Of a DNA stretch of 46,940 nt, positions 5,734 to 45,249 are shown in pieces. The notes below the pieces were generated by a model. It was not told the DNA's origin. It made no database searches and worked only from the letters and a program-made list of their open reading frames with translations. Within the stretch, counting starts at the first letter, position 1. Each line of letters begins with the position of its first letter. The translations under genes were made by a program, and so were the position numbers. Source of the stretch: a virus. The stretch is taken from the IMG/VR virus record IMGVR_UViG_3300025117_001212; one strand, written 5' to 3'.

Positions 5734-7152
5734 ATGGCATCGAACGAATATCAGATTTCAGCCGGCCTAGTCCCGATTGACAACTCCACGGGGGCGACCA
5801 GTAACGCCTATTACATTGCGGCGGGGCTGGTGCCGGGGGATACGGAGGCGGGCGGGGAATCAAGTAGTTCTAGTGAATCTAGTTTATCCGAATCTAGCTC
5901 GTCTAGTACATCTAGTTCTTCTCAATCTAGTAGTTCTAGTAGCTCACAATCTAGTTCTTCTAGTGAATCTAGTAGTAGTAAGTCAAGTTCTTCTCAATCT
6001 AGTAGCTCTAGTGAATCTAGTTCATCACAATCATCTAGTTCATCTAGTGAAAGTAGTAGTTCACAATCATCTAGTTCTAGTGAAAGTAGTAGTTCACAAT
6101 CATCTAGTTCTAGTGAGAGTAGTTCATCACAATCTAGTTCATCTAGTGAGAGTAGTAGTTCACAATCATCTAGTTCTAGTGAAAGTAGTAGTTCACAATC
6201 ATCTAGTTCTAGTGAGAGTAGTTCATCACAATCTAGTTCATCTAGTGAGAGTAGTTCATCACAATCTAGTTCTTCTAGTGAGTCTAGTTCATCTAGTGAA
6301 TCTAGTAGTAGTGAGTCAAGTTCATCTAGTGAATCTAGTAGTAGTGAGTCAAGTTCATCTAGTGAATCTAGTAGTAGTGAGTCAAGTTCATCTAGTGAAT
6401 CTAGTTCATCACAATCTAGTTCTTCTAGTGAGAGTAGTTTATTACATCTCAGTTCGTCTTCATCAAGTGAATCGTTAAGCTCTTCAAGCAAATCAAGCAG
6501 TTCTAGTACGTCAAGTTCATCACAGTCTAGTAGTTCTAGTGAAAGTAGTAGTTCTAGTAAATCTAGTTCTTCGCAATCAAGTAGTTCTTCTACTTCTAGT
6601 TCATCACAATCATCTAGTTCTAGTGAATCTAGTTCTTCACAATCGAGTTCATCTAGTGAATCTAGTTCATCACAATCAAGTTCTAGTACTTCTAGTTCAT
6701 CACAATCTAGTTCTTCTAGCGAATCGAGTAGCTCACAATCGAGTAGCAGTTCGATTTCTAGTAGTTCACAATCATCTAGTTCTAGTGAATCAAGTTCATC
6801 ACAATCTAGTTCTTCTAGCGAATCGAGTTCTTCACAATCATCTAGTTCTAGTGAAAGTAGTAGTTCACAATCATCTAGTTCTAGTGAAAGTAGTTCATCT
6901 AGCACTTCAAGTTCTTCACAATCAAGTAGTTCAAGCGAATCATTTCATCCACTATCAAGTTCAAGTAGTTCTCAATCAAGTTCTTCTATCCAAAGTAGCT
7001 CTTCACAGTCAAGCAGTTCTACAGTTTTTACAGATCTATCAGATCCATCTATTGTTTTCAAAGTTGATAAATTAATAACAAATTTCAAAGTTGATAAATT
7101 AATAACAAATTTCAAAGTTGATAAATTAATAACAAACTTTAAAGTTTCTTAA
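5734..7152 (+). CDS. Poly-serine protein (~390 aa Ser-rich tract) with a C-terminal 9-aa repeat
   Basis: SSSES/SSSQS repeats with mixed TCN/AGY codons; ends in (FKVDKLITN)x3. Confidence 0.7.
   Translation: MASNEYQISAGLVPIDNSTGATSNAYYIAAGLVPGDTEAGGESSSSSESSLSESSSSSTSSSSQSSSSSSSQSSSSSESSSSKSSSSQSSSSSESSSSQSSSSSSESSSSQSSSSSESSSSQSSSSSESSSSQSSSSSESSSSQSSSSSESSSSQSSSSSESSSSQSSSSSESSSSQSSSSSESSSSSESSSSESSSSSESSSSESSSSSESSSSESSSSSESSSSQSSSSSESSLLHLSSSSSSESLSSSSKSSSSSTSSSSQSSSSSESSSSSKSSSSQSSSSSTSSSSQSSSSSESSSSQSSSSSESSSSQSSSSTSSSSQSSSSSESSSSQSSSSSISSSSQSSSSSESSSSQSSSSSESSSSQSSSSSESSSSQSSSSSESSSSSTSSSSQSSSSSESFHPLSSSSSSQSSSSIQSSSSQSSSSTVFTDLSDPSIVFKVDKLITNFKVDKLITNFKVDKLITNFKVS
7057..7146 (+). repeat. 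27-nt tandem repeat, three copies plus a partial copy
   Basis: ttcaaagttgataaattaataacaaat units at 7057, 7084, 7111. Confidence 0.9.
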
Positions 7153-14089: not shown

Positions 14090-14959
14090 ATGATAGAATT
14101 TAATAAAATAGTTATTAAAGAATTATTTAGTAATATTTTCGAACATGGGGCATGGACTATTTTTGTTGATGAAAAATATAAAACATGTGACGATGGCGAG
14201 TCCATTCTTGTGAATAATAAAATTTCACTATGTACAACTGTTATGAACCGAAGTGATGATTTAATTAGGTCATTGCCACAAAACATAGAGGATAATAAGG
14301 ATTATCCTAACCTAGAGTTTTTGATATTAGATTATAATAGCTCTAGTAATGAATTAATTAAGCTAATTAATTTTTTATCACAACCATTATATTTAGAATT
14401 AATAAACGAAGGTAGATTAATATTTTATAGGACTGAAGAACCTAGTCATTATAGTATGTCTCATTCGCGGAATATTGCTTTTAAGCAGGCCAAGGGTGAT
14501 ATCGTAGTGAATGTAGATGCTGATAACTTAACTAATAAAGGATTTGCGTCAAAAATAAATCAATTGGCAAATGCTAAACCAGAAATGGCCATTTTTGCAA
14601 AAGGTAAAAGAATGTTAAGAGGCAGACTTGGATTCTATAAAAAAGAATTTATAGAATTACTTGGGGGGTACAACGAAGACTTCATTGGTTATGGTGTAGA
14701 TGATAGAGATATCATGTGCAGAGCTTTTGGGTTAGGATTTACAGCCATGTGTTTTGGAGGTAAATATTTTGGAATAGTAGAGCAAATAATTAAAGAAAAT
14801 AAGACTATAAATATGATTAATCAAAATTGGAAGTATACAGAAAAATTGAACAAAATTATTTCATTTTTTAATTTAGCTTATGGTCTTTATAAAGCTAACA
14901 TAAATAGAAAATGGGGAGTTGTTAATGATCTTAAATCATTTTGGGAATTGGAATTATAA
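14090..14959 (+). CDS. GT2/GT7-like glycosyltransferase whose 3' third is a recoded allele associated with the TnpB cassette
   Basis: ISLCTTVMNR, SRNIAF, VNVDADN, GGYNEDFIGYGVDDRD. Confidence 0.85.
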   Translation: MIEFNKIVIKELFSNIFEHGAWTIFVDEKYKTCDDGESILVNNKISLCTTVMNRSDDLIRSLPQNIEDNKDYPNLEFLILDYNSSSNELIKLINFLSQPLYLELINEGRLIFYRTEEPSHYSMSHSRNIAFKQAKGDIVVNVDADNLTNKGFASKINQLANAKPEMAIFAKGKRMLRGRLGFYKKEFIELLGGYNEDFIGYGVDDRDIMCRAFGLGFTAMCFGGKYFGIVEQIIKENKTINMINQNWKYTEKLNKIISFFNLAYGLYKANINRKWGVVNDLKSFWELEL

Positions 14960-16243
14960 TGTTTTTTAAATCTATAACATATAGAATCTATCCTACTAAA
15001 TCTCAAGAACAGATGTTTAATCAATTCTGTGGTAATAATAGATTTGTTTGGAATCACTTCTTGATGAGAAATATTAAACATCATTTTGTTAGTGGTAAGT
15101 TTATCTTTGGATATGATATGTGTAAGGAGTTAACTAAATTAAAAGAAGAATATGAATGGTTAAAATTATCACCAGCACAATCGCTCCAACAGCAATGTTT
15201 GAATCTTGATAAAGCTATCAAGAATTGTTATAAATCTGAATTTGGATTTCCTAAGTTTAAAAAGAAAGGTAAATCTAAAGAAAGTTTTAAAATAGTTCAA
15301 AGATTTTGGTTTTCTAAATCAAGAAAATCCATAAGAATACCTAAAATTGGATTCATTAGAATTAAGCCTAAAATCAATATTAATTTAAAAGATATCAAGA
15401 ATGTAACCATCAAAAAGATCAATAATCATTGGTATCTTTCTATATGTCATCAATTCAATATCTTTAGAACCCCAATGACTGGGAAAAGAGTTGGATTAGA
15501 TTTAGGAACTGTTAGGTTAGCAACTCTCAGTAATGGTAAAGTGATTGATAAGTTTGAAGACAAAGAATTAGTAAAAAAATTTAAATCAACTCAAAGAAAA
15601 CTAGAAAGGAGAACTAGAAGAAATCGTAAGTATAGAATGAAAAAAATTCAATCTATTAGTCGTGCAAAAACCAAGCAATCACTATCTAGATTGAATAAGA
15701 AACTTAGAGACAAGAGAAAAGATTACTTAGATAAAGTTTCTAAGAAGTTAGTGAAACGATATGACGTGATCTGTATTGAAGACTTGAAAATATCCAATAT
15801 GACTAGACAAGTAAGAGAAAATGAAGATGGATCTCCAAGAAAAAGTGTTAGTGCCAAATCAGGATTGAATAGAGAAATACTCAATCAATCTTGGGGTCAA
15901 CTGATAAACATGTTAGATTATAAATCTAAGTGGTTCAATAAGAGTATGATTAAAGTAGATCCCCATCACACATCACAAAGATGTAGTGAATGTGGATTCA
16001 CTCACAAGAGAAATAGGAGATCACAATCAGAATTTAAGTGCTTAAAGTGTGGTTATGAGCTAAATGCAGATCACAATGCTGCAAAGAATATCAAAAGATT
16101 AGGTATTAGGCAATGGAAAAAAGGCAGCGTAGAATTAAAAAGGTTTGGACGTAACCATGTGGAGGACTCACAGAGTCTAATGAAGCTAGAAAGTTCTATC
16201 TTAGATGGTAGATGCCTTAGAAGTAATTCTAAGGAAACGTCAT
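14693..16243 (+). mobile_element. TnpB cassette 1 (recoded gene end, tnpB, omega-RNA); no tnpA
   Basis: Bounded by a diverged duplication of the glycosyltransferase 3' end starting at 14693 and at 16244. Confidence 0.7.
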
Positions 16244-16251
16244 GGAGCTGA
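14959..16251 (+). CDS. tnpB: TnpB RNA-guided endonuclease (IS200/IS605 family), copy 1
   Basis: YRIYPT N-terminus, GLDLG, IEDL, CSECG..CLKCG zinc finger, NADHNAA; ATG overlaps the upstream TAA; ORF reads through the omega-RNA. Confidence 0.95.
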   Translation: MFFKSITYRIYPTKSQEQMFNQFCGNNRFVWNHFLMRNIKHHFVSGKFIFGYDMCKELTKLKEEYEWLKLSPAQSLQQQCLNLDKAIKNCYKSEFGFPKFKKKGKSKESFKIVQRFWFSKSRKSIRIPKIGFIRIKPKININLKDIKNVTIKKINNHWYLSICHQFNIFRTPMTGKRVGLDLGTVRLATLSNGKVIDKFEDKELVKKFKSTQRKLERRTRRNRKYRMKKIQSISRAKTKQSLSRLNKKLRDKRKDYLDKVSKKLVKRYDVICIEDLKISNMTRQVRENEDGSPRKSVSAKSGLNREILNQSWGQLINMLDYKSKWFNKSMIKVDPHHTSQRCSECGFTHKRNRRSQSEFKCLKCGYELNADHNAAKNIKRLGIRQWKKGSVELKRFGRNHVEDSQSLMKLESSILDGRCLRSNSKETSWS

Positions 16252-26919: not shown

Positions 26920-26989
26920 TGCCGGAGGCGGGATTCGAACCAGCGACCTCCTCTCGAGCGGTGCTCCTGCCAGACTGAGCTACTCCGGC
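26920..26989 (-). tRNA. tRNA-like RNA with a truncated anticodon arm (no assignable anticodon)
   Basis: GCCGGAG/CTCCGGC acceptor stem, TAGCTCAG.CTGGCAGGAGC D-arm, GGTTCGAATCC T-loop; only 12 nt where 17 are expected. Confidence 0.7.
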
Positions 26990-29308: not shown

Positions 29309-30112
29309 TTAAATGTTAATGGATTTTCTAAATGGATTATCTGTAGCCCAATCTTTATTCAATCTTTCAACAAACATCTTATATAGAACTTCAAAATTTA
29401 TGTCAAGGTTCGCCTCCTTTCTATAGTCATTCACTAGCTGATTTGTAACTTCAACTAGAGATTCTATATTAGAAAATTGAGTCACAATAATATTGTAGGC
29501 AGTGTCTATTATCTGACCAAACTGTGTGTTTCCAAGTTTTACTTCTGTTAATGCGTAAATCAATATTTCAAACTTGTCAACACCAGAAACAAGTAATCCT
29601 TCTTCACTGCCATCTTTTGAAGACTTCCATAGATTTATATAGTATTGCTTGATATTCTCTGGAAGCCCTTCAAACACTTCTTGCTCTACGCATTTAATAG
29701 CAATTGTTTTGAATAATGCTGATACCTGATCAGATCCATGTTTAACTGGAAACAAAATGTCGCCAGTTACACTTTCTTCTATATCATGGATAAGGGCTCT
29801 TTTAATAACTTCTGATGTATCATATCTTTTTAATTTACTATTTTCAAGATCAGCAAACAACATTGCATAGAGGGCAGTATAGAATGAATGTTCAGAAACT
29901 GGATATTTTCCAATATGCGGAGTATTTGAACATCTGTCTATGCTGCATAATCTGCGTGCCCTGAACACAAAATCTGATATATGACGTTTCTCTAATTCTT
30001 TGGAGTTAGAGCATCTACCATTTAAGGTAGAACTTTCTAGTTTCAACGGACTCAATGAGTCCTCCACATGGTTGCGCCCCAACCTTTTTTCACCTAAGCT
30101 GCTTTTTTCCAT
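29309..30112 (-). CDS. HD-domain 5'-deoxynucleotidase (YfbR-like) with a 44-aa N-terminal extension encoded by TnpB omega-RNA
   Basis: VSEHSF, ALIHDIEESVTGDI, DKFE; the first 44 codons are the omega-RNA scaffold. Confidence 0.85.
   Translation of the reverse strand: MEKSSLGEKRLGRNHVEDSLSPLKLESSTLNGRCSNSKELEKRHISDFVFRARRLCSIDRCSNTPHIGKYPVSEHSFYTALYAMLFADLENSKLKRYDTSEVIKRALIHDIEESVTGDILFPVKHGSDQVSALFKTIAIKCVEQEVFEGLPENIKQYYINLWKSSKDGSEEGLLVSGVDKFEILIYALTEVKLGNTQFGQIIDTAYNIIVTQFSNIESLVEVTNQLVNDYRKEANLDINFEVLYKMFVERLNKDWATDNPFRKSINI
29961..30110 (-). ncRNA. TnpB omega-RNA copy 2 (scaffold ends 29981; guide about 29980-29961)
   Basis: Same conserved block ending GAAACGTCAT. Confidence 0.8.
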
Positions 30113-31269
30113 TATCTGATTCCCTTCTTTTTGATATTTATAGCAGCATTATGATCTGCATTTAATTCATATCCACACTTCAAACATCTGAACTCACTTT
30201 GAGATCTCCTATTTCTCTTATGAATGAAACCGCATTTACTACATTTCCTAGAAGTATTCTCAGGATTTACCCTAATCACCTTTTTGTTAAACCAAGAACT
30301 CTTATACTCTAATATTGAAATCAGTTGTCCCCAAGACTGATTCAGTATTTCCCTATTGAGCCCTGATTTAGCACTGACACCACTTCTATGAGATCCATCA
30401 TCAGTTTTATTTACTTGTCTAGTCATATTCTTGATCTTTAAGTCTTCAATGTAGATCATATCATACTTCTTTACTAACTTCTTAGAAACTTTATCTAAGT
30501 AATCTTTTCTCTTGTCTCTAAGTTTCTTATTCAATCTAGATAGTGATTGCTTGGTTTTTGCACGACTAATAGATTGAATCTTTTTCATTTTATGTTTTTT
30601 ATTTTTTCTAGTCCTCCTTTCTAGTTTTCTCTGTGTTGATTTAATCTTTTTCAGTAACTCTTCATCTTCAAATTTATCAATCACTTTTCCATTAGAAAGA
30701 GTTGCTAATCTTACTGTTCCTAAATCTAACCCGACTTTTCTACCTGACATTGGAGTTCTAAATATACTGAATTGATGACAGATATAAAGACACCAATTGT
30801 TCCCTTGCTTTTTAATGGTTACATTTTTAATATCTTTAAGATTAATATTAATTCTAGGTTTGATTCTAATAAATCCAATTTTAGGAATCTTAATTGATTT
30901 TTTAGATTTAGATATTTTAATGTTTTGATTAACCCTAAAACTTTCTTTAGATTTTCTTTTCTTTTTAAACTTAGGAAATCCAAATTCTGATTTGAAGCAA
31001 TTTTTTAGTGCTTTATCTAGATCTAAGCATTGTTGTTGAAGTGGTTGGCTAGGAGATAGTTTTAGCCATTCATATCCTTTATACTGTTTTAATCTAGTTA
31101 ACTCTTTACACATATCATACCCAAACAGGAACTTACCACTAACAAAATGATGTTTAATGTTTCTCATTAAGAAGTGATTCCATGTAAATCTATTATTACC
31201 ACAAAACTGATTAAACATCTGTTCTTGCGATTTAGTAGGATAGATTTTATATGTAAAAGATTTTATCAT
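30112..31269 (-). CDS. tnpB: TnpB RNA-guided endonuclease, copy 2
   Basis: GLDLG, IEDL, zinc finger, NADHNAA; close paralogue of copy 1. Confidence 0.95.
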   Translation of the reverse strand: MIKSFTYKIYPTKSQEQMFNQFCGNNRFTWNHFLMRNIKHHFVSGKFLFGYDMCKELTRLKQYKGYEWLKLSPSQPLQQQCLDLDKALKNCFKSEFGFPKFKKKRKSKESFRVNQNIKISKSKKSIKIPKIGFIRIKPRININLKDIKNVTIKKQGNNWCLYICHQFSIFRTPMSGRKVGLDLGTVRLATLSNGKVIDKFEDEELLKKIKSTQRKLERRTRKNKKHKMKKIQSISRAKTKQSLSRLNKKLRDKRKDYLDKVSKKLVKKYDMIYIEDLKIKNMTRQVNKTDDGSHRSGVSAKSGLNREILNQSWGQLISILEYKSSWFNKKVIRVNPENTSRKCSKCGFIHKRNRRSQSEFRCLKCGYELNADHNAAINIKKKGIR

Positions 31270-31362: not shown

Positions 31363-31593
31363 TTATGCTTTGATTGGTTTAAATGTACCTTTATTAATTT
31401 CATGTAAGAAAAAACCTTTTGAAAATATATCTATGTGGCCATTGTTATATTTTACAGTAAGAAATAGTTTATTTAAATTTATATTGAGAAAGATTCTAAA
31501 TATTTCAAAAGTATTACTTTCAGGAAATATTGGTTGCAGGTTTTTATATTTACTTCCTATTGGATATTTTTTTCTAAATGTATATGAATTCAT
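31363..31593 (-). CDS. Small protein of the MNxYT.RKKY..G family
   Basis: MNSYTFRKKYPIGSKY; ATGA overlap. Confidence 0.65.
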   Translation of the reverse strand: MNSYTFRKKYPIGSKYKNLQPIFPESNTFEIFRIFLNINLNKLFLTVKYNNGHIDIFSKGFFLHEINKGTFKPIKA

Positions 31594-31823
31594 ATTGGTA
31601 CTAGCCTTTTATCTCTTAGCATTCTTTCAAAAAGTTCAATACTATAGCTGTTTGAATTAATAAATCTAGACTTAACATCAAAGGTTATTACAATTCCGCC
31701 AGGATAACTATCAAATTCCTTAATTGTGTAGATATCATCTTCATTATCCTCCATATAAATTACTCTTTTCATTTTATATTTACTTCCAACAGGATATTTC
31801 TTTCTTATTGTATATAAGTTCAT
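31590..31823 (-). CDS. Small protein of the MNxYT.RKKY..G family
   Basis: MNLYTIRKKYPVGSKY; ATGA overlap. Confidence 0.65.
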   Translation of the reverse strand: MNLYTIRKKYPVGSKYKMKRVIYMEDNEDDIYTIKEFDSYPGGIVITFDVKSRFINSNSYSIELFERMLRDKRLVPI

Positions 31824-32023
31824 TCTATAACTCTTAATTGTGAGTAATGCCAAATTATTTCTCTTCCATCATCTATGCAATTAAGGAGTAAATGGCCAGT
31901 AAAAGGAATATATATATCTTTAACTATGAATTTTTTACCAACATCTTGTGGAGTATTGGTATATTTAATAGGAGTTAATATTGTTCCTGGTTTATATTTC
32001 TTTCTTATTGTATATAGATTCAC
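31820..32023 (-). CDS. Small protein of the MNxYT.RKKY..G family
   Basis: MNLYTIRKKYKPGT; ATGA overlap. Confidence 0.65.
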   Translation of the reverse strand: MNLYTIRKKYKPGTILTPIKYTNTPQDVGKKFIVKDIYIPFTGHLLLNCIDDGREIIWHYSQLRVIE

Positions 32024-32974
32024 TTCAATACCTTAATGTATGCTTCTGGTTCATTACCTAAAGCAATTTGCGGTTCATTCATCCTAGACATTGATTTGAA
32101 CCCAGATATTTTAAGTGGCATATCTACTTTAATAGTTATATCCTTTTTATCTAATTTAGCAATCATATCAGACCATAAAACAATATTATACGTATCCCCA
32201 ATATTGGATAGATTTAAGATAGCCATCTTTCCACGCTTAGAATTAATATATCTAACTGATGAAACAATTCCAGCAACTACTATACGTTGACCAGTTCTAG
32301 CCAATGAAAATTTTTCATACGGTATTACACCTTTGAGTTGATCAGGGAATAGTTCTTCTACTGATTGTTTAAAATAAGGCATAACCTTACTCGCTTCAAA
32401 ATCCCATTGTTTTTTCTTTAGTGGTTCAAATGTTTCATTGATTTTATGAAGTTTATAGAATCTTTTTATTAACTTATTTCGCTTACTAAATTCATTAAGA
32501 GAATTAGTTGTTATCAACAATCTAAATATTTTGACGTTCACAATTCTTTTATTAACAGTTTCATAAATATGTTTGAAAGAGTCATATGGTTGATGTTTTA
32601 CTATTTCGTTAGCTGCACTAATTCCTATTCCTTTAATACTTGTGAAAGGCCAAACTATTTCATCATCATTGATGGAAAAATTGACCTTAGATAAGTTTAT
32701 ATCTGGCATGTGGTACTTTATACCATAGTATTTTTCTGAAACAGCCTTGATGCCTTCATACTCGTCATCAGTTGCTTGTGATAATAATGAACAGAAAAAC
32801 TCTAATGGATATTTAACCTTAAGATATTGTGTCGCATTAGCGACTAATGCATAAGAAGTCGCATGAGCTTTCCTTACATTACGGGAAACAATATTGTCCG
32901 AACGCATGAAGCTCAGACCATATTGTTTCCGCTGCCCTCCTTGCTTTATCTTTTGATTTAAAATGCTTTTTCAT
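32020..32974 (-). CDS. dnaE: DNA polymerase III alpha, C-terminal part, interrupted by a 10-nt gap (32872-32881)
   Basis: 32974..32882 encodes MKKHFKSKDKARRAAETIWSELHAFGQYCFP; 32871..32020 continues KAHATSYA..YLKVKYPLEFF, PDINLS, IKGIG (HhH) and an OB fold. Confidence 0.85.
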
Positions 32975-33004
32975 TATTTATCCATTATGGTATTAATGTT
33001 TGTT

Positions 33005-33187
33005 TTATAATATTTCTCCTTTAAGGATAATTTGCCGTAATTTTTCCCCATCAGGAGAAATTATAACCCCAGTCCCATTACAATCGGTACATTTAGCGTC
33101 ATCATCTTCGTCGTATCGTGATTTTATTCCTGAACCTCCACACACTTGACATGTCATTGTCATTTCTTGGATTAGTTCATCAATCAT
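33005..33187 (-). CDS. DnaJ-type zinc-finger protein resembling anti-TRAP
   Basis: CQVCGGSG...CTDCNGTGVIISPDGEKL. Confidence 0.6.
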   Translation of the reverse strand: MIDELIQEMTMTCQVCGGSGIKSRYDEDDDAKCTDCNGTGVIISPDGEKLRQIILKGEIL

Positions 33188-33380
33188 AAAAGTGCCCTTC
33201 TGTTTCATCTCTCCATTCAACTTCTCTTTCAACTTCATCATATAATTCTTCATATTTATCTTCAAACCAATCTTGATTTAGTAAATATTTAAGATAACCG
33301 GATTCTACTTCTTGGACTAGTTTCCCTTTATGTTTGCCGAAATAGAAACGATATTTCTTTTCAGTAAATTGTGTTGGCAT
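33180..33380 (-). CDS. DUF3820-like small protein
   Basis: FYFGKHKGKLVQEVESGYLKYL. Confidence 0.65.
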   Translation of the reverse strand: MPTQFTEKKYRFYFGKHKGKLVQEVESGYLKYLLNQDWFEDKYEELYDEVEREVEWRDETEGHFYD

Positions 33381-33382
33381 GA

Positions 33383-33595
33383 TTACGCCTTTTTCTTTTT
33401 ACTTTGTTTAGATTCAACCTTAAGAATTTTTGTTACAGTAATGACAAAATCACTAAAAACGGCTGGTTTTCCACGATTGTTATACCCACTATAAGTTTTA
33501 ACATTCATAACCCGAGCCGTTCCACCTTGATAATCAAAAGATTCGCCGTTATAAAATAGTTCAAACAATTCTTCATATGTATATTTTGTTCCCAT
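33383..33595 (-). CDS. Hypothetical protein
   Basis: Packed small ORF in the dnaE gap. Confidence 0.5.
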   Translation of the reverse strand: MGTKYTYEELFELFYNGESFDYQGGTARVMNVKTYSGYNNRGKPAVFSDFVITVTKILKVESKQSKKKKA

Positions 33596-33599
33596 ATTT

Positions 33600-33863
33600 T
33601 CACCACTTCATTTTCTTTGCGAGTTTTCTAATTCTGTTAGACATTGCCATTGCTTCTTTCTTATTAAATCTCACCCTTTGAACTGCTAGACTAAAATCTA
33701 TATGAATCATATTATCCATAAGATAAATATTATGTTGGACAGTCCGGAATGGCAGATCTGATGGTGTAGGTTCTTGCTTTTTCTTTAAATCAGCCTCATA
33801 AAATTCTTGAAGTTGTTTTTTCAGTTCTGGTGTTATTGCCGGCTCTTGTGATTCGCTGCTCAT
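33600..33863 (-). CDS. Hypothetical protein
   Basis: AGGAG RBS. Confidence 0.55.
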   Translation of the reverse strand: MSSESQEPAITPELKKQLQEFYEADLKKKQEPTPSDLPFRTVQHNIYLMDNMIHIDFSLAVQRVRFNKKEAMAMSNRIRKLAKKMKW

Positions 33864-33873
33864 GATTCTCCTT

Positions 33874-34194
33874 TTATGTTGAAAGAGTTAATTTAAATGA
33901 AATTCCTCTACGATAACGGTAGTCATCAGTAATGGTGATTGTTAATGTTTTTATCTTGTAGTCATTTAGATTTAAACTACTCCATTTGGTAAATTCTTCA
34001 AGATTTGTGGAACATTTTTCTGATGTTATTACTATTACACCTTCGAGTGATATTTCATTATAACCAAAATTTTCTTGCATCATAACAGCATCAAGTCTGA
34101 ACATTATTGCAAAATTATCATATGTTGTTGGTAAATTTTCTTTAAAATGTTTGATTAAATAATTTTCAAATTTAGTTAGATTATATTTATTCAT
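33874..34194 (-). CDS. Hypothetical protein
   Basis: 106 aa ORF. Confidence 0.5.
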   Translation of the reverse strand: MNKYNLTKFENYLIKHFKENLPTTYDNFAIMFRLDAVMMQENFGYNEISLEGVIVITSEKCSTNLEEFTKWSSLNLNDYKIKTLTITITDDYRYRRGISFKLTLST

Positions 34195-34360
34195 CGATTA
34201 ATATTTTCTCTTGCGGTTCCTCATGATGCTTACCACGGCCTACCGGATTTTCAGGATGCTTCTTGTTCCAAATCTTTGCAGCGGTCTCTTTAGCTTCTTC
34301 ATCAGATTTGCCTTCTTTTTTCAATTTATCTCTAATTTTAACGTATCCTTCTGGTGGCAT
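34187..34360 (-). CDS. Small basic protein not in the ORF track (MPPEGYVKIRDKLKKEGKSDEEAK...)
   Basis: AGGAG RBS before ATG 34360; 57 codons filling the gap between neighbours. Confidence 0.5.
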   Translation of the reverse strand: MPPEGYVKIRDKLKKEGKSDEEAKETAAKIWNKKHPENPVGRGKHHEEPQEKILIDE

Positions 34361-34362
34361 GA

Positions 34363-34740
34363 TTATTCTCCTTCTAGTTTTCTATTTTTAGTCTTGTTTT
34401 TACTTTTTTCAAACCATTGATATCTACACCTTGCACAAGTAAAATAAAATCCATATATTTCAGGAATATCATCTTTTGATGTATCATCATATTCAACTTT
34501 AATATCATAATTTTCTTGCACTTCATTATAATACGGAGGAGGATTTTTAACTATTAAAGGTTTTTTACATGCTGGACAACTATTGTACCTTGATATAACA
34601 ACATCATTATCTTTATTACTTAATCCAAAAGGATTAGATGATTGGGATTCTAATTCTTTACCAGTGTCAATATCTAGTGTAAATGGATTTTTAACTTGTG
34701 GTCCAAATGTAACTCTTCCTACTGTTTCTTTTTTATCCAT
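34363..34740 (-). CDS. Zinc-ribbon protein
   Basis: CPAC...CARC. Confidence 0.55.
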   Translation of the reverse strand: MDKKETVGRVTFGPQVKNPFTLDIDTGKELESQSSNPFGLSNKDNDVVISRYNSCPACKKPLIVKNPPPYYNEVQENYDIKVEYDDTSKDDIPEIYGFYFTCARCRYQWFEKSKNKTKNRKLEGE

Positions 34741-34958
34741 TTATCGTGCTCCTTAATTTTGTTCCAATATAATTGTCTTTCTTCTTCAGAAGAATCTATG
34801 CATGAAGTTTTAAATACACGATAATCCTTGTAATTGGTGGTTCTAACAATAAATGTGCTATCATATGCAACATTAATATCGGGCATATTAGATACCAACG
34901 AAACTAATCCAAGCCTCTTATGTTTAAATACTTTCCCTATTTGACTTTCTTTGTCCAT
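34719..34958 (-). CDS. Hypothetical protein
   Basis: 79 aa ORF overlapping the dnaE-N stop. Confidence 0.5.
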   Translation of the reverse strand: MDKESQIGKVFKHKRLGLVSLVSNMPDINVAYDSTFIVRTTNYKDYRVFKTSCIDSSEEERQLYWNKIKEHDKWIKKKQ

Positions 34959-37669
34959 TTTTTTACAAACCCTTCTATAAATTTTTCTTTGAATTTTCCG
35001 AACTCTTCTGGATTTTTAGACTTAACAATCTTTCTGAGTTTCTCTGAATCAATTGGTGACATTCCTGCAGCTTCAAGTCCCGCCAACATTAAATGTTCAC
35101 TATAGACTAGTACACCCATTGAATCTTTGGTTATTTCGGTGATTGATGGATGAAGTTCTTCTATTTCTTCTCTTCCATTTTTGCGATCAGCATATTTTTC
35201 AAATGCTCCAGCCGCAATTGGCCCAGGTCTATCAGCAGCTATTAGAAATATCAAATCTTCAATGTTATCTGGCTTAGTATTTCTTAAGGTTCCTTTTATT
35301 TTAGAACTACCTAACTGGAAAAACCCGATGTTTTCTCCTTTTGATAGAGTTTTGTAAACTTTCTTATTGCTTAATGGTATGTCTTCCAAATTTAGTTTAA
35401 TTCCATATCTTTTTTTAATTAAGCCAAAAGTATCTTTTATTACAGATAAGGTTTTAACTCCTAAAATATCCATAACCATGACACCGGCTTCATTAAGATG
35501 TTCTACTGAAGTATGTGAATTTTCCCATTGTGTTGTAAATACTCTTTCATCATTTTTACCCTTGCTGACTTTATTTGTTCTTACTGGAAGCCATTCATAG
35601 TATGGGATGGGAGATACTACAATTCCTGCAGGATGTAAGGAAGGGGCATATCTGTTATTTAGAATTGGGTGAACATATTTGAAATACCAATCTTTATTCT
35701 TAGCAAACCATCTTGATACTTCACCAATTTTTGTTATGTCATTTTCATCCCCAATGAGTTTTGTTATTTTGTTTATTTCCATAAAACTAAATGATTCTAA
35801 TCTAGCTTTATACTCAGCAGCTTCTTCAGCAGTTTTAGAATCATTAATTTTTTTATTTAGTTCTTCTGCTTCAACTCTAGCCATGTTCTTAATGGCTGAT
35901 CGTAATTGTGTCCTTCCAAAACTCCCAACAGGACATACCCTGTCTTCACCATACCTTTTCTTTAAATAATCTATTGCCATATCTCTGTAGGTATGGCATA
36001 TGTCTAAGTCAATATCGATATCAGCCATTCTAGCCTCTATACGAGCAGGTGAAATAAATCGTTCAAATAGAATTTTAAATTTGATAGGGTCAACAATTGA
36101 CAAACCAATGAGCCAAAGCACAACACTTCCATTAGCTGATCCTCTTAAAGAACATAGACATCCTTGCTTTTTAAGAAATCTTACTAGATCATCATAAATA
36201 AATATGTACGATATAACACCCATCTTTGTGAAAGCATCTATTTCATAATCTATACGTTTTTTGTATTCCTTTAATGGTGCCGATAATTGATCCTTTCTTT
36301 TCTTTAGGCCCTTCTTTATTCTCCATTTGAGATATTCTAATTCATCTAGTCGTTTTTTCTTATTGCCTGGAAATTTAGCCACACTTATTTTTGGGATTTT
36401 TAATCCACCAGTTTCTAATTCATGATTACATTTGTAAGCAACTTCTAAAGTATTAAGAACAGAAGACTTAAAAACATCGTCCGAGAAATGTTTCTTTTCT
36501 TTATGCGTTTCGTATATATCTTTGAAAGATTTAAACCAAATAGAATCACAATATGTTTCTGATAATTCAGAATCTTTTTCCCTCATCCTCATTACTTTAC
36601 TCTGTATTTCATGTCCACCTTCTTTTAAATAATGAACATCATTTGTAATAACTGTTTTGATATTCATTTCATCAGCAAGTTCTATAAGTCTTCTATTATA
36701 TCTTTTTTGAATGTTTATATCATCTACATAAATATCATGCAATTGCAATTCGAAATATAGATCATCCTTGAACATGTCTTTTAGATCTTGCGCAATTGCC
36801 CTTGCCTTCCTAATTTTGCCGTTAATAAGTTTACTGGCAAGCACACCTTTGAGGCAAGCTGTGAGGACAATGAGACCATCTTTATATTGCTCTAACATTT
36901 GGTAGTCAATACGAGGCCTGTAATAATAATTTTCAGTGCTCCATGCTAATTTTTGGAGAATAAGCATGTTACGATAGCCTATGCTATTCTTAGCTAATAG
37001 AACGATATGGTTACTTGATCTATGATCGCCATCATGAATTGTTGCATCATCAGTTATATATGCTTCAATTCCCATTATTGGTTTTATTCCAGCTTTCTTA
37101 CAAGCTAGATGTAGAGACATATGTGAAGCCATATTACCGTGGTCAGTGACAGCTAGGGCATCCATTCCAAATTCTTTAGCTTGTGCTACATATTTTTCGC
37201 AACTAGTAACTCCGTCCAAAATTGAACTATCGGTATGAACATGTAGGTGGACAAAGTCTGATTTTGAATTAGTAATTTTAGTTTTTTCAATCAACCTCAT
37301 AAGAGAGAATGGAATTGAATAAACGGCTAATCCTATCTTTTTAATGATCCTTATCTTTTTAGATATCATATATTTTGAAACTAAATATGGATCACCTCTA
37401 AAATCTATAATAATATCATCTATTCGTTCTGGAATAGAACGAAATATGCTTAGAGGAATATTTGTTTCTTTAATTTCTCTGAATCCATAGTTAGCTGAAT
37501 AAAAGAAAAATTCTTCACCTAAATCAGATAAGATAATAGCCGTATCATTAGATAATTGTTTTACTTCAGCAGGAACAATATATGTTCCACTCAAAAGAAG
37601 ATCTATTCCTGTCATGGTGATCCTAATTTTAAACATTAGAGGTCTTTGGAGTTCCTCGCCAAAATACAA
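34937..37669 (-). CDS. dnaE: DNA polymerase III alpha, N-terminal part (PHP and catalytic domains)
   Basis: FVHLHVHT, TDHG, TNDVHY, RGSANGS, LFERFISPAR, DIDIDLD, HPAGIVV, MDILG, GFFQL, RPGP. Confidence 0.95.
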   Translation of the reverse strand: MYFGEELQRPLMFKIRITMTGIDLLLSGTYIVPAEVKQLSNDTAIILSDLGEEFFFYSANYGFREIKETNIPLSIFRSIPERIDDIIIDFRGDPYLVSKYMISKKIRIIKKIGLAVYSIPFSLMRLIEKTKITNSKSDFVHLHVHTDSSILDGVTSCEKYVAQAKEFGMDALAVTDHGNMASHMSLHLACKKAGIKPIMGIEAYITDDATIHDGDHRSSNHIVLLAKNSIGYRNMLILQKLAWSTENYYYRPRIDYQMLEQYKDGLIVLTACLKGVLASKLINGKIRKARAIAQDLKDMFKDDLYFELQLHDIYVDDINIQKRYNRRLIELADEMNIKTVITNDVHYLKEGGHEIQSKVMRMREKDSELSETYCDSIWFKSFKDIYETHKEKKHFSDDVFKSSVLNTLEVAYKCNHELETGGLKIPKISVAKFPGNKKKRLDELEYLKWRIKKGLKKRKDQLSAPLKEYKKRIDYEIDAFTKMGVISYIFIYDDLVRFLKKQGCLCSLRGSANGSVVLWLIGLSIVDPIKFKILFERFISPARIEARMADIDIDLDICHTYRDMAIDYLKKRYGEDRVCPVGSFGRTQLRSAIKNMARVEAEELNKKINDSKTAEEAAEYKARLESFSFMEINKITKLIGDENDITKIGEVSRWFAKNKDWYFKYVHPILNNRYAPSLHPAGIVVSPIPYYEWLPVRTNKVSKGKNDERVFTTQWENSHTSVEHLNEAGVMVMDILGVKTLSVIKDTFGLIKKRYGIKLNLEDIPLSNKKVYKTLSKGENIGFFQLGSSKIKGTLRNTKPDNIEDLIFLIAADRPGPIAAGAFEKYADRKNGREEIEELHPSITEITKDSMGVLVYSEHLMLAGLEAAGMSPIDSEKLRKIVKSKNPEEFGKFKEKFIEGFVKKWTKKVK

Positions 37670-40013: not shown

Positions 40014-40628
40014 TCACATTAAAATTGCTGTTATTGTAGTTAATTCATTGATTACAGGATACTCATATTCAATTCCTAATTTTTCCATAGTTGCATACAC
40101 ATCAATCCCAATAGCTTCTAATGATGGAAGGCCATTTCTGCGGCATGGTGGATGATCGCGATTAGGGCATCTTATTCCGCATTTATCACAATGACCCTGA
40201 AGCAAAGCAAACACATTCTTATTAAGCTGTTTTAGTTCACGTTTATATCTTACCATTAATTGACATGTTTCTCTTGATTGACCCATTTCACATCCTTTGA
40301 GCTGCCTACCTTTCCTTACTTTAAAGTCTATATGTGATAGATCTTTTTTGTTAATTTTCCAACTTTTAGTTCCATCATTTTTCCATATGAATAATATGCA
40401 GTGATCAAAGCTATTTACGAAATTCATTGATAATTCAAGAGTTTCAAATTGAGGATAAGTAAGTTTAAGATATGATGGACATAAGATAAATCTTCCCACT
40501 CCGCCGCATGTGTAACATTTCAACCTAGCGATTAAATCAAAAATTAATTCATCAGGTTTGATAATTTTATATTCAGAAAAGATTTCTGGTTTAGGCAATT
40601 TGTTTAATATCTTTATTAATTTTTTCAT
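40014..40628 (-). CDS. DUF2284-like metal-binding protein
   Basis: RLKC..C....CP, GHCDKC..C....C, PSLEAIGIDVYAT. Confidence 0.75.
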   Translation of the reverse strand: MKKLIKILNKLPKPEIFSEYKIIKPDELIFDLIARLKCYTCGGVGRFILCPSYLKLTYPQFETLELSMNFVNSFDHCILFIWKNDGTKSWKINKKDLSHIDFKVRKGRQLKGCEMGQSRETCQLMVRYKRELKQLNKNVFALLQGHCDKCGIRCPNRDHPPCRRNGLPSLEAIGIDVYATMEKLGIEYEYPVINELTTITAILM

Positions 40629-41497
40629 TTTAATCCTACGATATGTTTATATCTAAACCATGAACCAAAATTTTTATAAACAACCTTAAATGATACTCCT
40701 GTTAATTTGGTAAATTCTATTTGGGTCATAAGTTCGTTATGTGTTTCGGCTAATTCTCTACCTACTTTAACTAAACTTTTCTTAGTATGTTTCTTTGGTT
40801 TTTTTATTATTTGTGTTTTCCATTTTAATTTTTCAGCTTCAGATTTTTCTCTATGCAGATTCATTCTTTTCATAAGTCTCGTAACAACTACCTTAGTTAG
40901 ATTAAGATTTTTAGCAATTTGCCTTGATGATAGTCCTTGGTGATGCATATTGTAAATTTTTTTGTAATATAAGTCATATTTAATTTTATTATTTTTTGTC
41001 CAACGCACTGGATCTTTAGTTTTTTGCCCATTTGATTTTTTATTCGAACATAATCCCATTCGCCCTGCGTGTTCCATATTTTCTTTATGAGTCACATATT
41101 CCAAATTTTTAATATTATTGTTTGTTTTAATCCCATCAATATGATTTACTTCTTTATTGTTCGGGCATGGACCTAAAAAAGCATGGGCTACTAATCTGGC
41201 AGTACGTATCCATATTTTATTTTTACATAAACTTAGTTTAGTGTTTAAATATCCAGAGGTAGATATCCTTTGATTAGCTAATTTACCAGGCCAATTATCT
41301 GTTTTATCATCATATATTAGCCCTCTAATTCTAGCTAGATTTGATACTTCATAATCAGGAAATTCTATTAGTTTATTCTTAACCATTACAGCACATGGTT
41401 TCCAAATTTCGCCAGGCAGGGTTCCACAATGTGGTTGCCTTTTTAATTGATATTTTCTAGACATTATCTCAAAATTTACCTTCTGGATAATAGTCAC
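40625..41497 (-). CDS. Free-standing NUMOD4/HNH homing endonuclease
   Basis: EIWKP..YEVSNLARIR, RLVAHAFL, VNHIDGIKTNN..NLEYVT..EN..H, C-terminal HTH and FGSW repeat. Confidence 0.9.
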   Translation of the reverse strand: MTIIQKVNFEIMSRKYQLKRQPHCGTLPGEIWKPCAVMVKNKLIEFPDYEVSNLARIRGLIYDDKTDNWPGKLANQRISTSGYLNTKLSLCKNKIWIRTARLVAHAFLGPCPNNKEVNHIDGIKTNNNIKNLEYVTHKENMEHAGRMGLCSNKKSNGQKTKDPVRWTKNNKIKYDLYYKKIYNMHHQGLSSRQIAKNLNLTKVVVTRLMKRMNLHREKSEAEKLKWKTQIIKKPKKHTKKSLVKVGRELAETHNELMTQIEFTKLTGVSFKVVYKNFGSWFRYKHIVGLK

Positions 41498-44076: not shown

Positions 44077-45249
44077 TTAAATAAAAATTAATCTTCTTGG
44101 CCTCCAAATTAATTTAGATTTAGAATATGATATCGGGAAATTGCTATCAATGTTTGTACGTATAGTAATTCCTAATACTTTTAAGCTCCTAATAGATCCT
44201 ACTATATTCCCTAGTTTATAATGTTTTGCTTTTATAATATCCCAATGTCTAAATCCATTTCTTTCAATACAAGTTTTAGTTGGATTATTTTCCCATACCT
44301 TGGTTCTTTTGGGAATTATCAAATATTCCTTACATTTAAACTTAAAAGACTTAATCATAGCTGAGGCATCATTTGCATGAGATTTTTTTAATCCAAGTTC
44401 TATTCTTTTATTTTTAGTCATCCAACCAAAACAAATTCTCACTTTTTTAAATCTTTCTTTCAATGCATTAAATAAAAACCATTTTCCTTGTTGAACATGT
44501 GCTGGATATCTGAATTGTTTAACACTTTTATTAAATAGCCATTTACCATTATGTAATGAATTATGACAATTCTTGCACAAAGTCAATCCGTTCTTAACTA
44601 TGTTAGTTCCACCATTTGATCTAGGAATTATATGATGGGCATTTAAATTTTCTTTACTTTTACAATGTTGACAAATATATTTATCTCTCCATAGAACCTT
44701 TTGTCTCCAATTTTCACCTTCATATCTAGATTGTTGATATTCTTTCCCAACCAATTTATATCCAGCACTCATTGATGAAATATCAAATTGTCCTTGTTCG
44801 ACAACACATTTAGTGATATTTAATCTTTTCATCATAAAATCAATCACTCTAAGAATTGATTCTTTCTTTTGTCTTATAGAAGGAGGAATCCAACCTTTTT
44901 CTCTTTTTCTATTCAAAAACCTACATTGTCTATATCTTAAATTACGATTTCTTCTATTTCTACGATACATCATTCTTTGCAACATTTTTCTATGTACATC
45001 TTGCCTTAATTTAATAGTTCCACAAAATACAACATTTTTCTTGTGACCTATTGATATCCCTACTTCTTTAGCTCCATCATCAATTCCGATTTTAAATTTG
45101 CCTACAGGATTATTAATCACTTTCTTCAATTGAATCGTAAACGGAATCACTGAATATACAAATGCTTTCTTTTTCTTCAAAAGAAGTCTTGCCCTTGCTT
45201 CAGTGGTAGGAAGCAATGGCTTAAATTCTCTATCTATGACAAAGACCAT
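44077..45249 (-). CDS. iscB: IscB RNA-guided endonuclease
   Basis: PLLP (PLMP) N-terminus, GIDDG RuvC-I, RRNRR bridge helix, VEQG, HNH (HHIIPRSNGG..N..CKNCH), KSHANDA. Confidence 0.95.
   Translation of the reverse strand: MVFVIDREFKPLLPTTEARARLLLKKKKAFVYSVIPFTIQLKKVINNPVGKFKIGIDDGAKEVGISIGHKKNVVFCGTIKLRQDVHRKMLQRMMYRRNRRNRNLRYRQCRFLNRKREKGWIPPSIRQKKESILRVIDFMMKRLNITKCVVEQGQFDISSMSAGYKLVGKEYQQSRYEGENWRQKVLWRDKYICQHCKSKENLNAHHIIPRSNGGTNIVKNGLTLCKNCHNSLHNGKWLFNKSVKQFRYPAHVQQGKWFLFNALKERFKKVRICFGWMTKNKRIELGLKKSHANDASAMIKSFKFKCKEYLIIPKRTKVWENNPTKTCIERNGFRHWDIIKAKHYKLGNIVGSIRSLKVLGITIRTNIDSNFPISYSKSKLIWRPRRLIFI

Follow-up and report, generated by a model that had tools for sequence, protein, structure and literature searches.

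A conserved break in the DNA polymerase C-subunit gene of related phages, a candidate site of short programmed ribosomal bypass

How can a replicative DNA polymerase be read from a gene that is broken, by a stop codon and a gap of a few nucleotides, inside a conserved motif? The question is raised by a 46,940-nt stretch of virus DNA (IMG/VR record IMGVR_UViG_3300025117_001212; hereafter the window), which represents 47 kb of a ~140-kb contig from a large phage genome and is found in groundwater and soil runs. A preliminary description of this DNA, made from the letters alone, had noted a 10-nt interruption of the polymerase frame, a hairpin and an AGGAGG ahead of it, and had proposed that ribosomes cross the gap in a programmed manner, as in T4 gene 60. 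Natural systems of programmed bypass are few, those named in the accessible portions of the literature being T4 gene 60 and its homologues, the mitochondria of Magnusiomyces, and the Hau3 terminase; our search, of freely accessible papers, found no description of the present polymerase site. Here we present what appears, from comparison of sequences, to be a conserved recoding site in the C-subunit gene, whose two frames are most likely joined by a short programmed ribosomal bypass, a reading that we favor with some reserve.

By Pfam, the window carries genes for RecA, HU, thymidylate synthase and TnpB together with structural-side genes. Its family C polymerase gene lies on the minus strand, as do all of the polymerase features located below, and consists of three open stretches: an N part, a leader, and a remainder. 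The gene for the DnaE N-terminal subunit (34937..37669; 910 aa, with its own stop codon) encodes the PHP domain, catalytic core and fingers (PF02811, PF07733, PF17657), contains the motifs HLHVH, TDHG, DIDIDLD and MDILG, and is 55-57% identical to its relatives. Between it and the C-subunit gene is a spacer of about 2 kb (33005..34958) with eight small open reading frames (ORFs), among which Pfam and PHROG-type searches recognized only a CxxCxGxG zinc finger and detected no endonuclease; the content of this spacer differs among relatives. The C-subunit gene opens with a leader ORF (32879..32974) of 31 codons (32974-32882) plus TAA, which ends in YCFP and has a weak ribosome-binding site of its own (-3.1 kcal/mol). 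From K-A-H onward, the remainder (32020..32871; 283 codons) encodes the HhH and OB domains of the DnaE C subunit, and can be aligned with E. coli and other solved DnaE chains by way of a relative with a continuous gene, P0005.

The gene has a second split, 96 nt upstream of the first base of the gap, which the preliminary description left unmentioned. The division into N and C genes is an ordinary trait of this family, and the break inside the C gene is the finding: relatives have either fused proteins (L002, L118, P0211, P0212) or stand-alone C subunits of ~314 aa that read through F-P-K-x-H. Pfam searches of the window found no intein domain in the N or C piece, in the leader, or in any spacer ORF. 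A three-codon ORF, M-D-K-stop (32975-32987), overlaps the leader start as TAATG; the C subunits of relatives often start with M-D-K, and this ORF could be a remnant of an old start or a coupling device.

The break itself is a coding gap of 10 nt (32872..32881) that opens with the stop codon TAA (32881-32879) and is followed by the Lys codon of K-A-H (32871-32869). The putative take-off codon before it is a CCG for Pro (32882..32884), rare in this gene (2 of 37 Pro codons), and the candidate landing codon is the last triplet of the gap, an unmatched AGG (32874-32872). Ending at the take-off codon is a 47-nt RNA hairpin (32884..32930). Its outer stem of 11 bp is perfect and pairs 32930-32920 with 32894-32884; its inner stem has 8 bp. 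The folding energy is -25.6 kcal/mol (z -5.6, matched by 0 of 200 shuffles), and only one other locus is more stable among 15,630 minus-strand windows of 51 nt. The stem may extend to 32932/32881, taking in the U of the stop, and 3 nt 5' of this extended stem lies an internal Shine-Dalgarno (SD)-like sequence, AAGGAGG (32936..32942), within tandem AGG codons for Arg. The break, 10-nt gap, hairpin and AGGAGG were all confirmed where the preliminary description had placed them. It had also offered initiation at an in-frame ATG in the hairpin loop (32905..32907), the start chosen by gene callers; the SD for this ATG, only -2.2 kcal/mol, is not usable, and the ATG is not at the same place in relatives, which speaks against that reading.

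We confirm that the gap is real and conserved, and find no support for its being a lesion. The comparison with other sequence data that the preliminary description had proposed showed the gap without variant in six of eight assemblies (11 runs listed), with X8 breaking beside the gap and X11 lacking coverage there. Five of the six bridging assemblies may be the window's own source, and one of these five has a sample in common with the sixth; moreover, contigs drop rare variants, and these assemblies consequently exclude only a one-off error. Because the assemblies may share a source, independent support for the gap comes from relatives.

Among close loci with DNA over the junction, 11 are distinct, comprising three gapped loci (the window included) and eight continuous ones; duplicates (L049/L207, L119/L208, L209, L142/L210/L226) and L120, in which the junction is absent, were dropped from this count. 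L001 (49% identical) has a 32-codon leader ending in F-P, then TAA, with an 11-nt gap that ends in AUG. L117 (51% identical), which matches a second record, L210, exactly over 1975 nt, has F-P followed by TAG and CUC, a 6-nt in-frame gap. A fourth, putative break, in P0024/P0159, is deduced from protein: when the called N-terminus of P0024 is read backward, it yields Y-A-F-P, then what is probably a stop, and a gap of 10 nt whose last triplet would be AUG. The gapped phages are 49-62% identical to one another, with both flanks of the gap conserved. In all of them the gap follows the same codon, its lengths of 6, 10 and 11 nt cover all three frames, and in all three loci with DNA a stop codon (TAA, TAA, TAG) directly follows Pro. 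The true ends of the N and C genes vary among relatives, unlike the end of the leader at Pro. Reassignment of TAG in the phage with the 6-nt gap was considered and rejected: TAG is a real stop in L210, since both its N piece and its thymidylate synthase gene end in TAG.

Beyond these close relatives, the gap was absent in all 45 of the more distant loci inspected. GTDB genomes provided 64 loci with a single close relative, which is continuous, and among annotated phages the 20 listed of 359 records were all less than 30% identical. Scans of viral contigs with the single proteins P0001 and P0159 gave no match; a first DNA-pattern scan of viral contigs gave 67 matches, none encoding DnaE, and two further pattern scans gave one match (the L210 phage) and three (the L210 phage and two unrelated). 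The three pattern scans are not exhaustive, as all missed L001, which fits one pattern and nearly fits another. Gene callers mis-annotate these genes, as seen in P0004, P0007, P0024 and P0159. One continuous close relative of the C subunit, L143, lies in a contig binned to an archaeal genome and is probably a mis-binned phage contig. In four distant loci, an intein-like sequence was seen by eye at or beside the motif (L042, ~5890-6003; L032, L033 and L041, near 6000); that of L042 looks like the C half of a split intein with its own start.

The RNA signals around the break track the gap, as judged from the three gapped loci with DNA. In all three, folding of the final 17 codons of the leader gives -25 to -26 kcal/mol, a stability that none of 1000 synonymous shuffles reaches; for the same region in the eight continuous loci, the native stability is reached by 212-951 of 1000. 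Counted in a single register, Watson-Crick pairs of the outer stem number 11 of 11 in each gapped locus and 4-5 of 11 in each continuous one (Fisher's test, p 0.006, or 0.012 with close pairs merged), and the inner stems differ by one register between lineages. The preliminary description had suggested looking in relatives for the same gap and for compensatory changes in the hairpin, and both were found in L001 and L117/L210: four of the 11 stem pairs are compensated across the three loci, which 7 of 500 shuffles reach, in a test that is inflated because the stem was defined on the same three sequences. Slid controls were 36-58% paired.

The SD-like sequence just 5' of the stem, evaluated against a generic anti-SD, has energies of -11.9 (the window), -12.2 and -8.7 kcal/mol in the gapped loci. 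At the same place the continuous loci range from +0.4 to -8.4 kcal/mol, the latter value, from L123, being close to those of gapped loci. It is the strongest such sequence in each of the three gapped polymerase genes (0 of 1160, 1166 and 1182 15-nt windows as strong, the window first), and its strength is reached by 90, 45 and 105 of 5000 synonymous shuffles. No motif that continuous leaders lack is common to the gapped leaders, and a T4-like KKYK nascent-peptide signal (motif as given in the accessible part of PMC5009743) was set aside as evidence: the KKHFK of the window leader is shared with continuous P0005 and is absent from the other gapped leaders. An intrinsic terminator is also unlikely, given one weak match where 0.9 is expected and no U run after the outer stem.

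What the protein tolerates at this position was judged from 209 proteins, in 164 of which a regular expression recognized the motif. F-x stands directly before K-x-H, with no insertion, in 159 of these, and the other five are the gapped phages. Continuous P0005 aligns gap-free to the GYGFNKSH of E. coli DnaE, a motif that we take to contact the incoming nucleotide. In an AlphaFold model of P0005 (pLDDT 89.5 overall, 63-73 near the site), F-P forms a two-residue elbow between helices 8-29 and 32-51. This predicted position argues against products with inserted residues and would be compatible with a break between two separately made helices; the fold predicted for the C piece alone was poor (pLDDT 64) and was set aside.

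The recurrence of the break, the stop as first codon, the co-varying stem and the SD, together with the lack of the stem in continuous loci, back the original proposal of a programmed event at the level of the ribosome. In the bypass that we favor, a ribosome holding peptidyl-tRNA-Pro in its P site would pause at the stop, which would occupy the A site, while the 3' arm of the stem is still inside the ribosome. The stem would then zip up behind the ribosome and push it forward; once closed, the hairpin would loop out about 50 nt, so that only 6-10 unpaired nt would separate the SD from the triplet before Lys, at which the SD would park the P site with only partial codon pairing. Decoding would then resume, restoring F-P followed by K-A-H. 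In the window, an alternative landing could occur one codon earlier at GUA, which would add one Arg. Slow termination after Pro would help take-off, and the efficiency of bypass is probably low. Completion of a 5' stem-loop has been proposed as the motor that pulls mRNA through the ribosome in T4 gene 60, according to the available text of PMC5009743 and PMC7026636.

The landing is the harder part of this proposal. With the hairpin closed, the distance from the SD to the triplet before Lys is 10 unpaired nt in L117, and in the window it is 9 nt without the weak basal extension of the stem and 1 nt with it. The lowest-energy fold of the window includes the extended stem and so gives the 1-nt spacing, which counts against bypass; spacing of 6-10 nt is in any case too loose to fix the frame alone. 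The codons for take-off and for landing read CCG/AGG in the window, CCG/AUG in L001 and CCU/CUC in L117, so that the mismatch conceded by the preliminary description is confirmed and extends to the relatives. Pairing with tRNA-Pro would be confined to position 3 for AGG (with tRNA-Pro(CGG)), would extend to positions 2 and 3 for AUG, and for CUC would involve all three positions, one of them as a wobble; in L117 a single substitution would create a matched landing, which the locus nevertheless lacks. Minimal pairing can reportedly suffice, to go by the title of a 2004 study by Herr cited in PMC3014915. T4-family cassettes, by the available text of bioRxiv 2022.08.31.505936, all keep a landing codon that matches the one used for take-off, and in the bypass of yeast mitochondria the landing match is described as sometimes imperfect (PMC5009743, in part).

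A tentative extension is that landing is set by an RNA ruler and not by codon-anticodon matching. In this version, the 25-bp coding hairpin would refold behind the stalled ribosome and loop out about 50 nt, and the distant SD would dock the ribosome at the codon where decoding resumes. If this were true, gap length, frame and landing codon would be free to vary, and the device would have been gained, or precisely lost, repeatedly in one polymerase family.

The strongest rival to bypass, doubtful in our judgment, is a polymerase made from three pieces. This rival is a real one, since an in-frame AUG closes two of the four gaps (in one of these as deduced from protein). The ribosome would terminate after Pro and release a 31-residue peptide, and the C piece would be started from the hairpin-bridged SD, de novo or by restart, at the codon before Lys, in the manner of the split ribosome-binding sites of T4 genes 25 and 38. 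An AUG stands directly before Lys in L001, 6 unpaired nt from the SD when the hairpin is looped out, and probably in P0024/P0159; bypass does not need it. Also counting against bypass and toward a separate start, the internal SD of the window is far stronger than the leader's own. This polymerase family already tolerates an intein-free N/C split, and the break is predicted to fall between two helices, yet it cuts a conserved motif (GYGFNKSH in E. coli DnaE). No standard start codon precedes Lys in the window, which offers only AGG or GUA, or in L117, which offers only CUC, although AGG is one substitution from AUG; in E. coli, non-canonical codons are described as starting translation at 0.01-3% of the level of AUG (bioRxiv 063800, in part). 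Furthermore, separate genes would need neither a leader that stops precisely at Pro nor a gap kept within 6-11 nt, both of which are seen here.

The T4 precedent for such a start is itself only partly alike. According to the accessible text of PMC3014915, genes 25 and 38 have the same initiation layout of SD, hairpin and AUG, and the hairpin between the SD and the target of the ribosome shortens the distance between them, as it would here. The T4 sites have AUG as their target and span 22-27 nt, whereas the distance here is about 60 nt and the hairpin is coding; only one of three loci with DNA (L001) has an AUG.

It is improbable that the ribosome shifts frame at the stop and leaves extra residues behind, by +1 or -2 in the window, by -1 in L001, and by stop readthrough in L117. 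In the shifted frames no stop codon intervenes between the Pro codon and Lys, and two positions of the -1 (CCC) and -2 (UCC) triplets would pair with tRNA-Pro, but one conserved device would need three mechanisms and would add 2-4 residues at a place where none of the 159 continuous proteins has an insertion. The simple +1 frameshift among the preliminary alternatives fares no better, as the gaps of relatives would need other shifts, and residues would be inserted. In addition, backward sliding would be blocked by a 5' stem that refolds, according to the available text of PMC7026636.

Very unlikely, in turn, is excision of the gap from the RNA by a nuclease and ligase guided by the hairpin. 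Such excision would account for precise joining over variable gap lengths and for repeated precise loss of the gap, but the loci have no common splice-site sequence and no conserved pairing across the junction, Rfam intron families gave no match, RtcB or PF09414 ligases were found in none of four related contigs (which are only 24-70% complete), and the SD and first-codon stop would be left unexplained. An assembly error or decayed gene is largely refuted and hardly credible: an A8 run inside the 11-nt gap of L001 could make its length wrong, and a second gene copy could lie in the part of the contig beyond the window, but the gap is invariant in the six bridging assemblies and the same site is broken in phages 49-62% identical, with a compensated stem and both flanks conserved, which tells against the lesion that the preliminary description had listed.

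Among known systems, the closest likeness of the site is to Hau3-type short bypass, here within a split gene like T4 39/60, and it departs from the defining features of both. Hau3-type bypass is described in the terminase of Streptomyces phage Hau3 and also of StrepC.1, a prophage of S. catenulae (PMC10732093 and PMC5009743, in part). In the available text of PMC10732093, bypass in the Hau3 terminase is proposed to depend on a strong internal SD together with a 5' hairpin, on a slow codon in the A site, and on a gap of 7-10 nt, and the junction peptide of bypass was found by mass spectrometry in E. coli with UUA replaced by UAA. Shared with Hau3 are the short gap in an essential phage gene at an insertion-intolerant junction (10 nt here; 0 insertions in 159 continuous proteins) and the strong internal SD with a hairpin 5' of the gap. 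Unlike Hau3, the present gene is a DNA polymerase and not a terminase, a natural stop occupies the A site in place of the hungry UUA, and the gaps of 6, 10 and 11 nt extend over all three frames; set beside the Hau3 terminase, the landing codons here are unmatched, a feature stated for the present loci alone.

The T4 model put forward in the preliminary description holds for the split gene and for the stop right after the take-off codon, and gives way to the 10-nt bypass of the Hau3 terminase as the closer parallel. As in T4 gene 39/mobA/gene 60, an ancestral gene is split in two with foreign ORFs between (bioRxiv 2022.08.31.505936, in part); the gap comes early in the downstream gene, close to its 5' end, at codon 31 here and at codon 46 in T4, and a 5' stem-loop may serve as motor. 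It differs from T4 gene 60 in that the gap measures 6-11 nt and not 50 nt, there is no take-off/A-site stem-loop, the take-off codon ends the 3' arm of the stem (in T4 it is on the 5' side), no landing codon is matched, and the SD lies 5' of the hairpin and not within the gap. As for a homing endonuclease between the gene halves, one gapped relative has an HNH endonuclease in its spacer (L210, 10648-11229); no endonuclease was recognized in the spacer of the window or of L001, and small GIY-YIG genes lie between the N and C genes of the continuous L121 (1163-1438) and L123 (470-769). Like the split-intein DnaE of cyanobacteria and the fractured genes of phages (PMC2677866, in part), the present DnaE comes in pieces; unlike split-intein DnaE, none of its pieces has an intein domain, and any rejoining would take place on the ribosome.

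The gapped phages do not form a single group in a tree of 29 C pieces built with FastTree. The window has continuous P0005 as its sister (support 1.0), and the other three gapped phages share a clade (0.97) with the continuous L124, L143 and P0169, among which they are interspersed. The leader of the window is 68% identical to the N-terminus of P0005, compared with 35% and 29% for the other gapped leaders, on which ground recent transfer of a single hairpin cassette was rejected. This scatter on the tree and these leader identities imply that the device is old with repeated precise loss, or was gained more than once. By analogy with what has been proposed for T4 gene 60, the insert may have originated as protection of a conserved nuclease target.

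The site offers three natural alleles and a probable fourth, with varied gap lengths, frames and landing triplets around a conserved core of SD, hairpin, Pro and stop, and its gap-free relatives serve as controls. These alleles bear on two questions: how far a 5' stem-loop drives sliding, and whether landing needs anticodon pairing. Should separate initiation of the C piece prove true, the site would still be unusual, as a replicative polymerase assembled from three pieces and broken in a conserved active-site motif, with non-AUG starts made through a ribosome-binding site looped out by 50 nt.

Several other features of the window were observed. Downstream of the polymerase gene are three short paralogous ORFs (31363-32032, minus strand) with similar M-N-x-Y-T-x-R-K-K-Y starts, for which PHROG gave no match. 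The genome is rich in mobile nucleases, with two TnpB/Cas12f-like genes, one RRXRR-HNH gene (presumably IscB-like) and one NUMOD4-HNH gene, at 30112-31269 (-), 14941-16251 (+), 44077-45249 (-) and 40625-41497 (-). Finally, a tRNA-like RNA (26920-26989, minus strand) scores 42 bits with the Rfam tRNA family and is missed by ARAGORN; the tRNA family gave no match in four related contigs. Its anticodon arm is shortened to 12 nt from 17, and it directly follows an ORF for an acidic protein of 458 aa and is itself followed by a short direct repeat.
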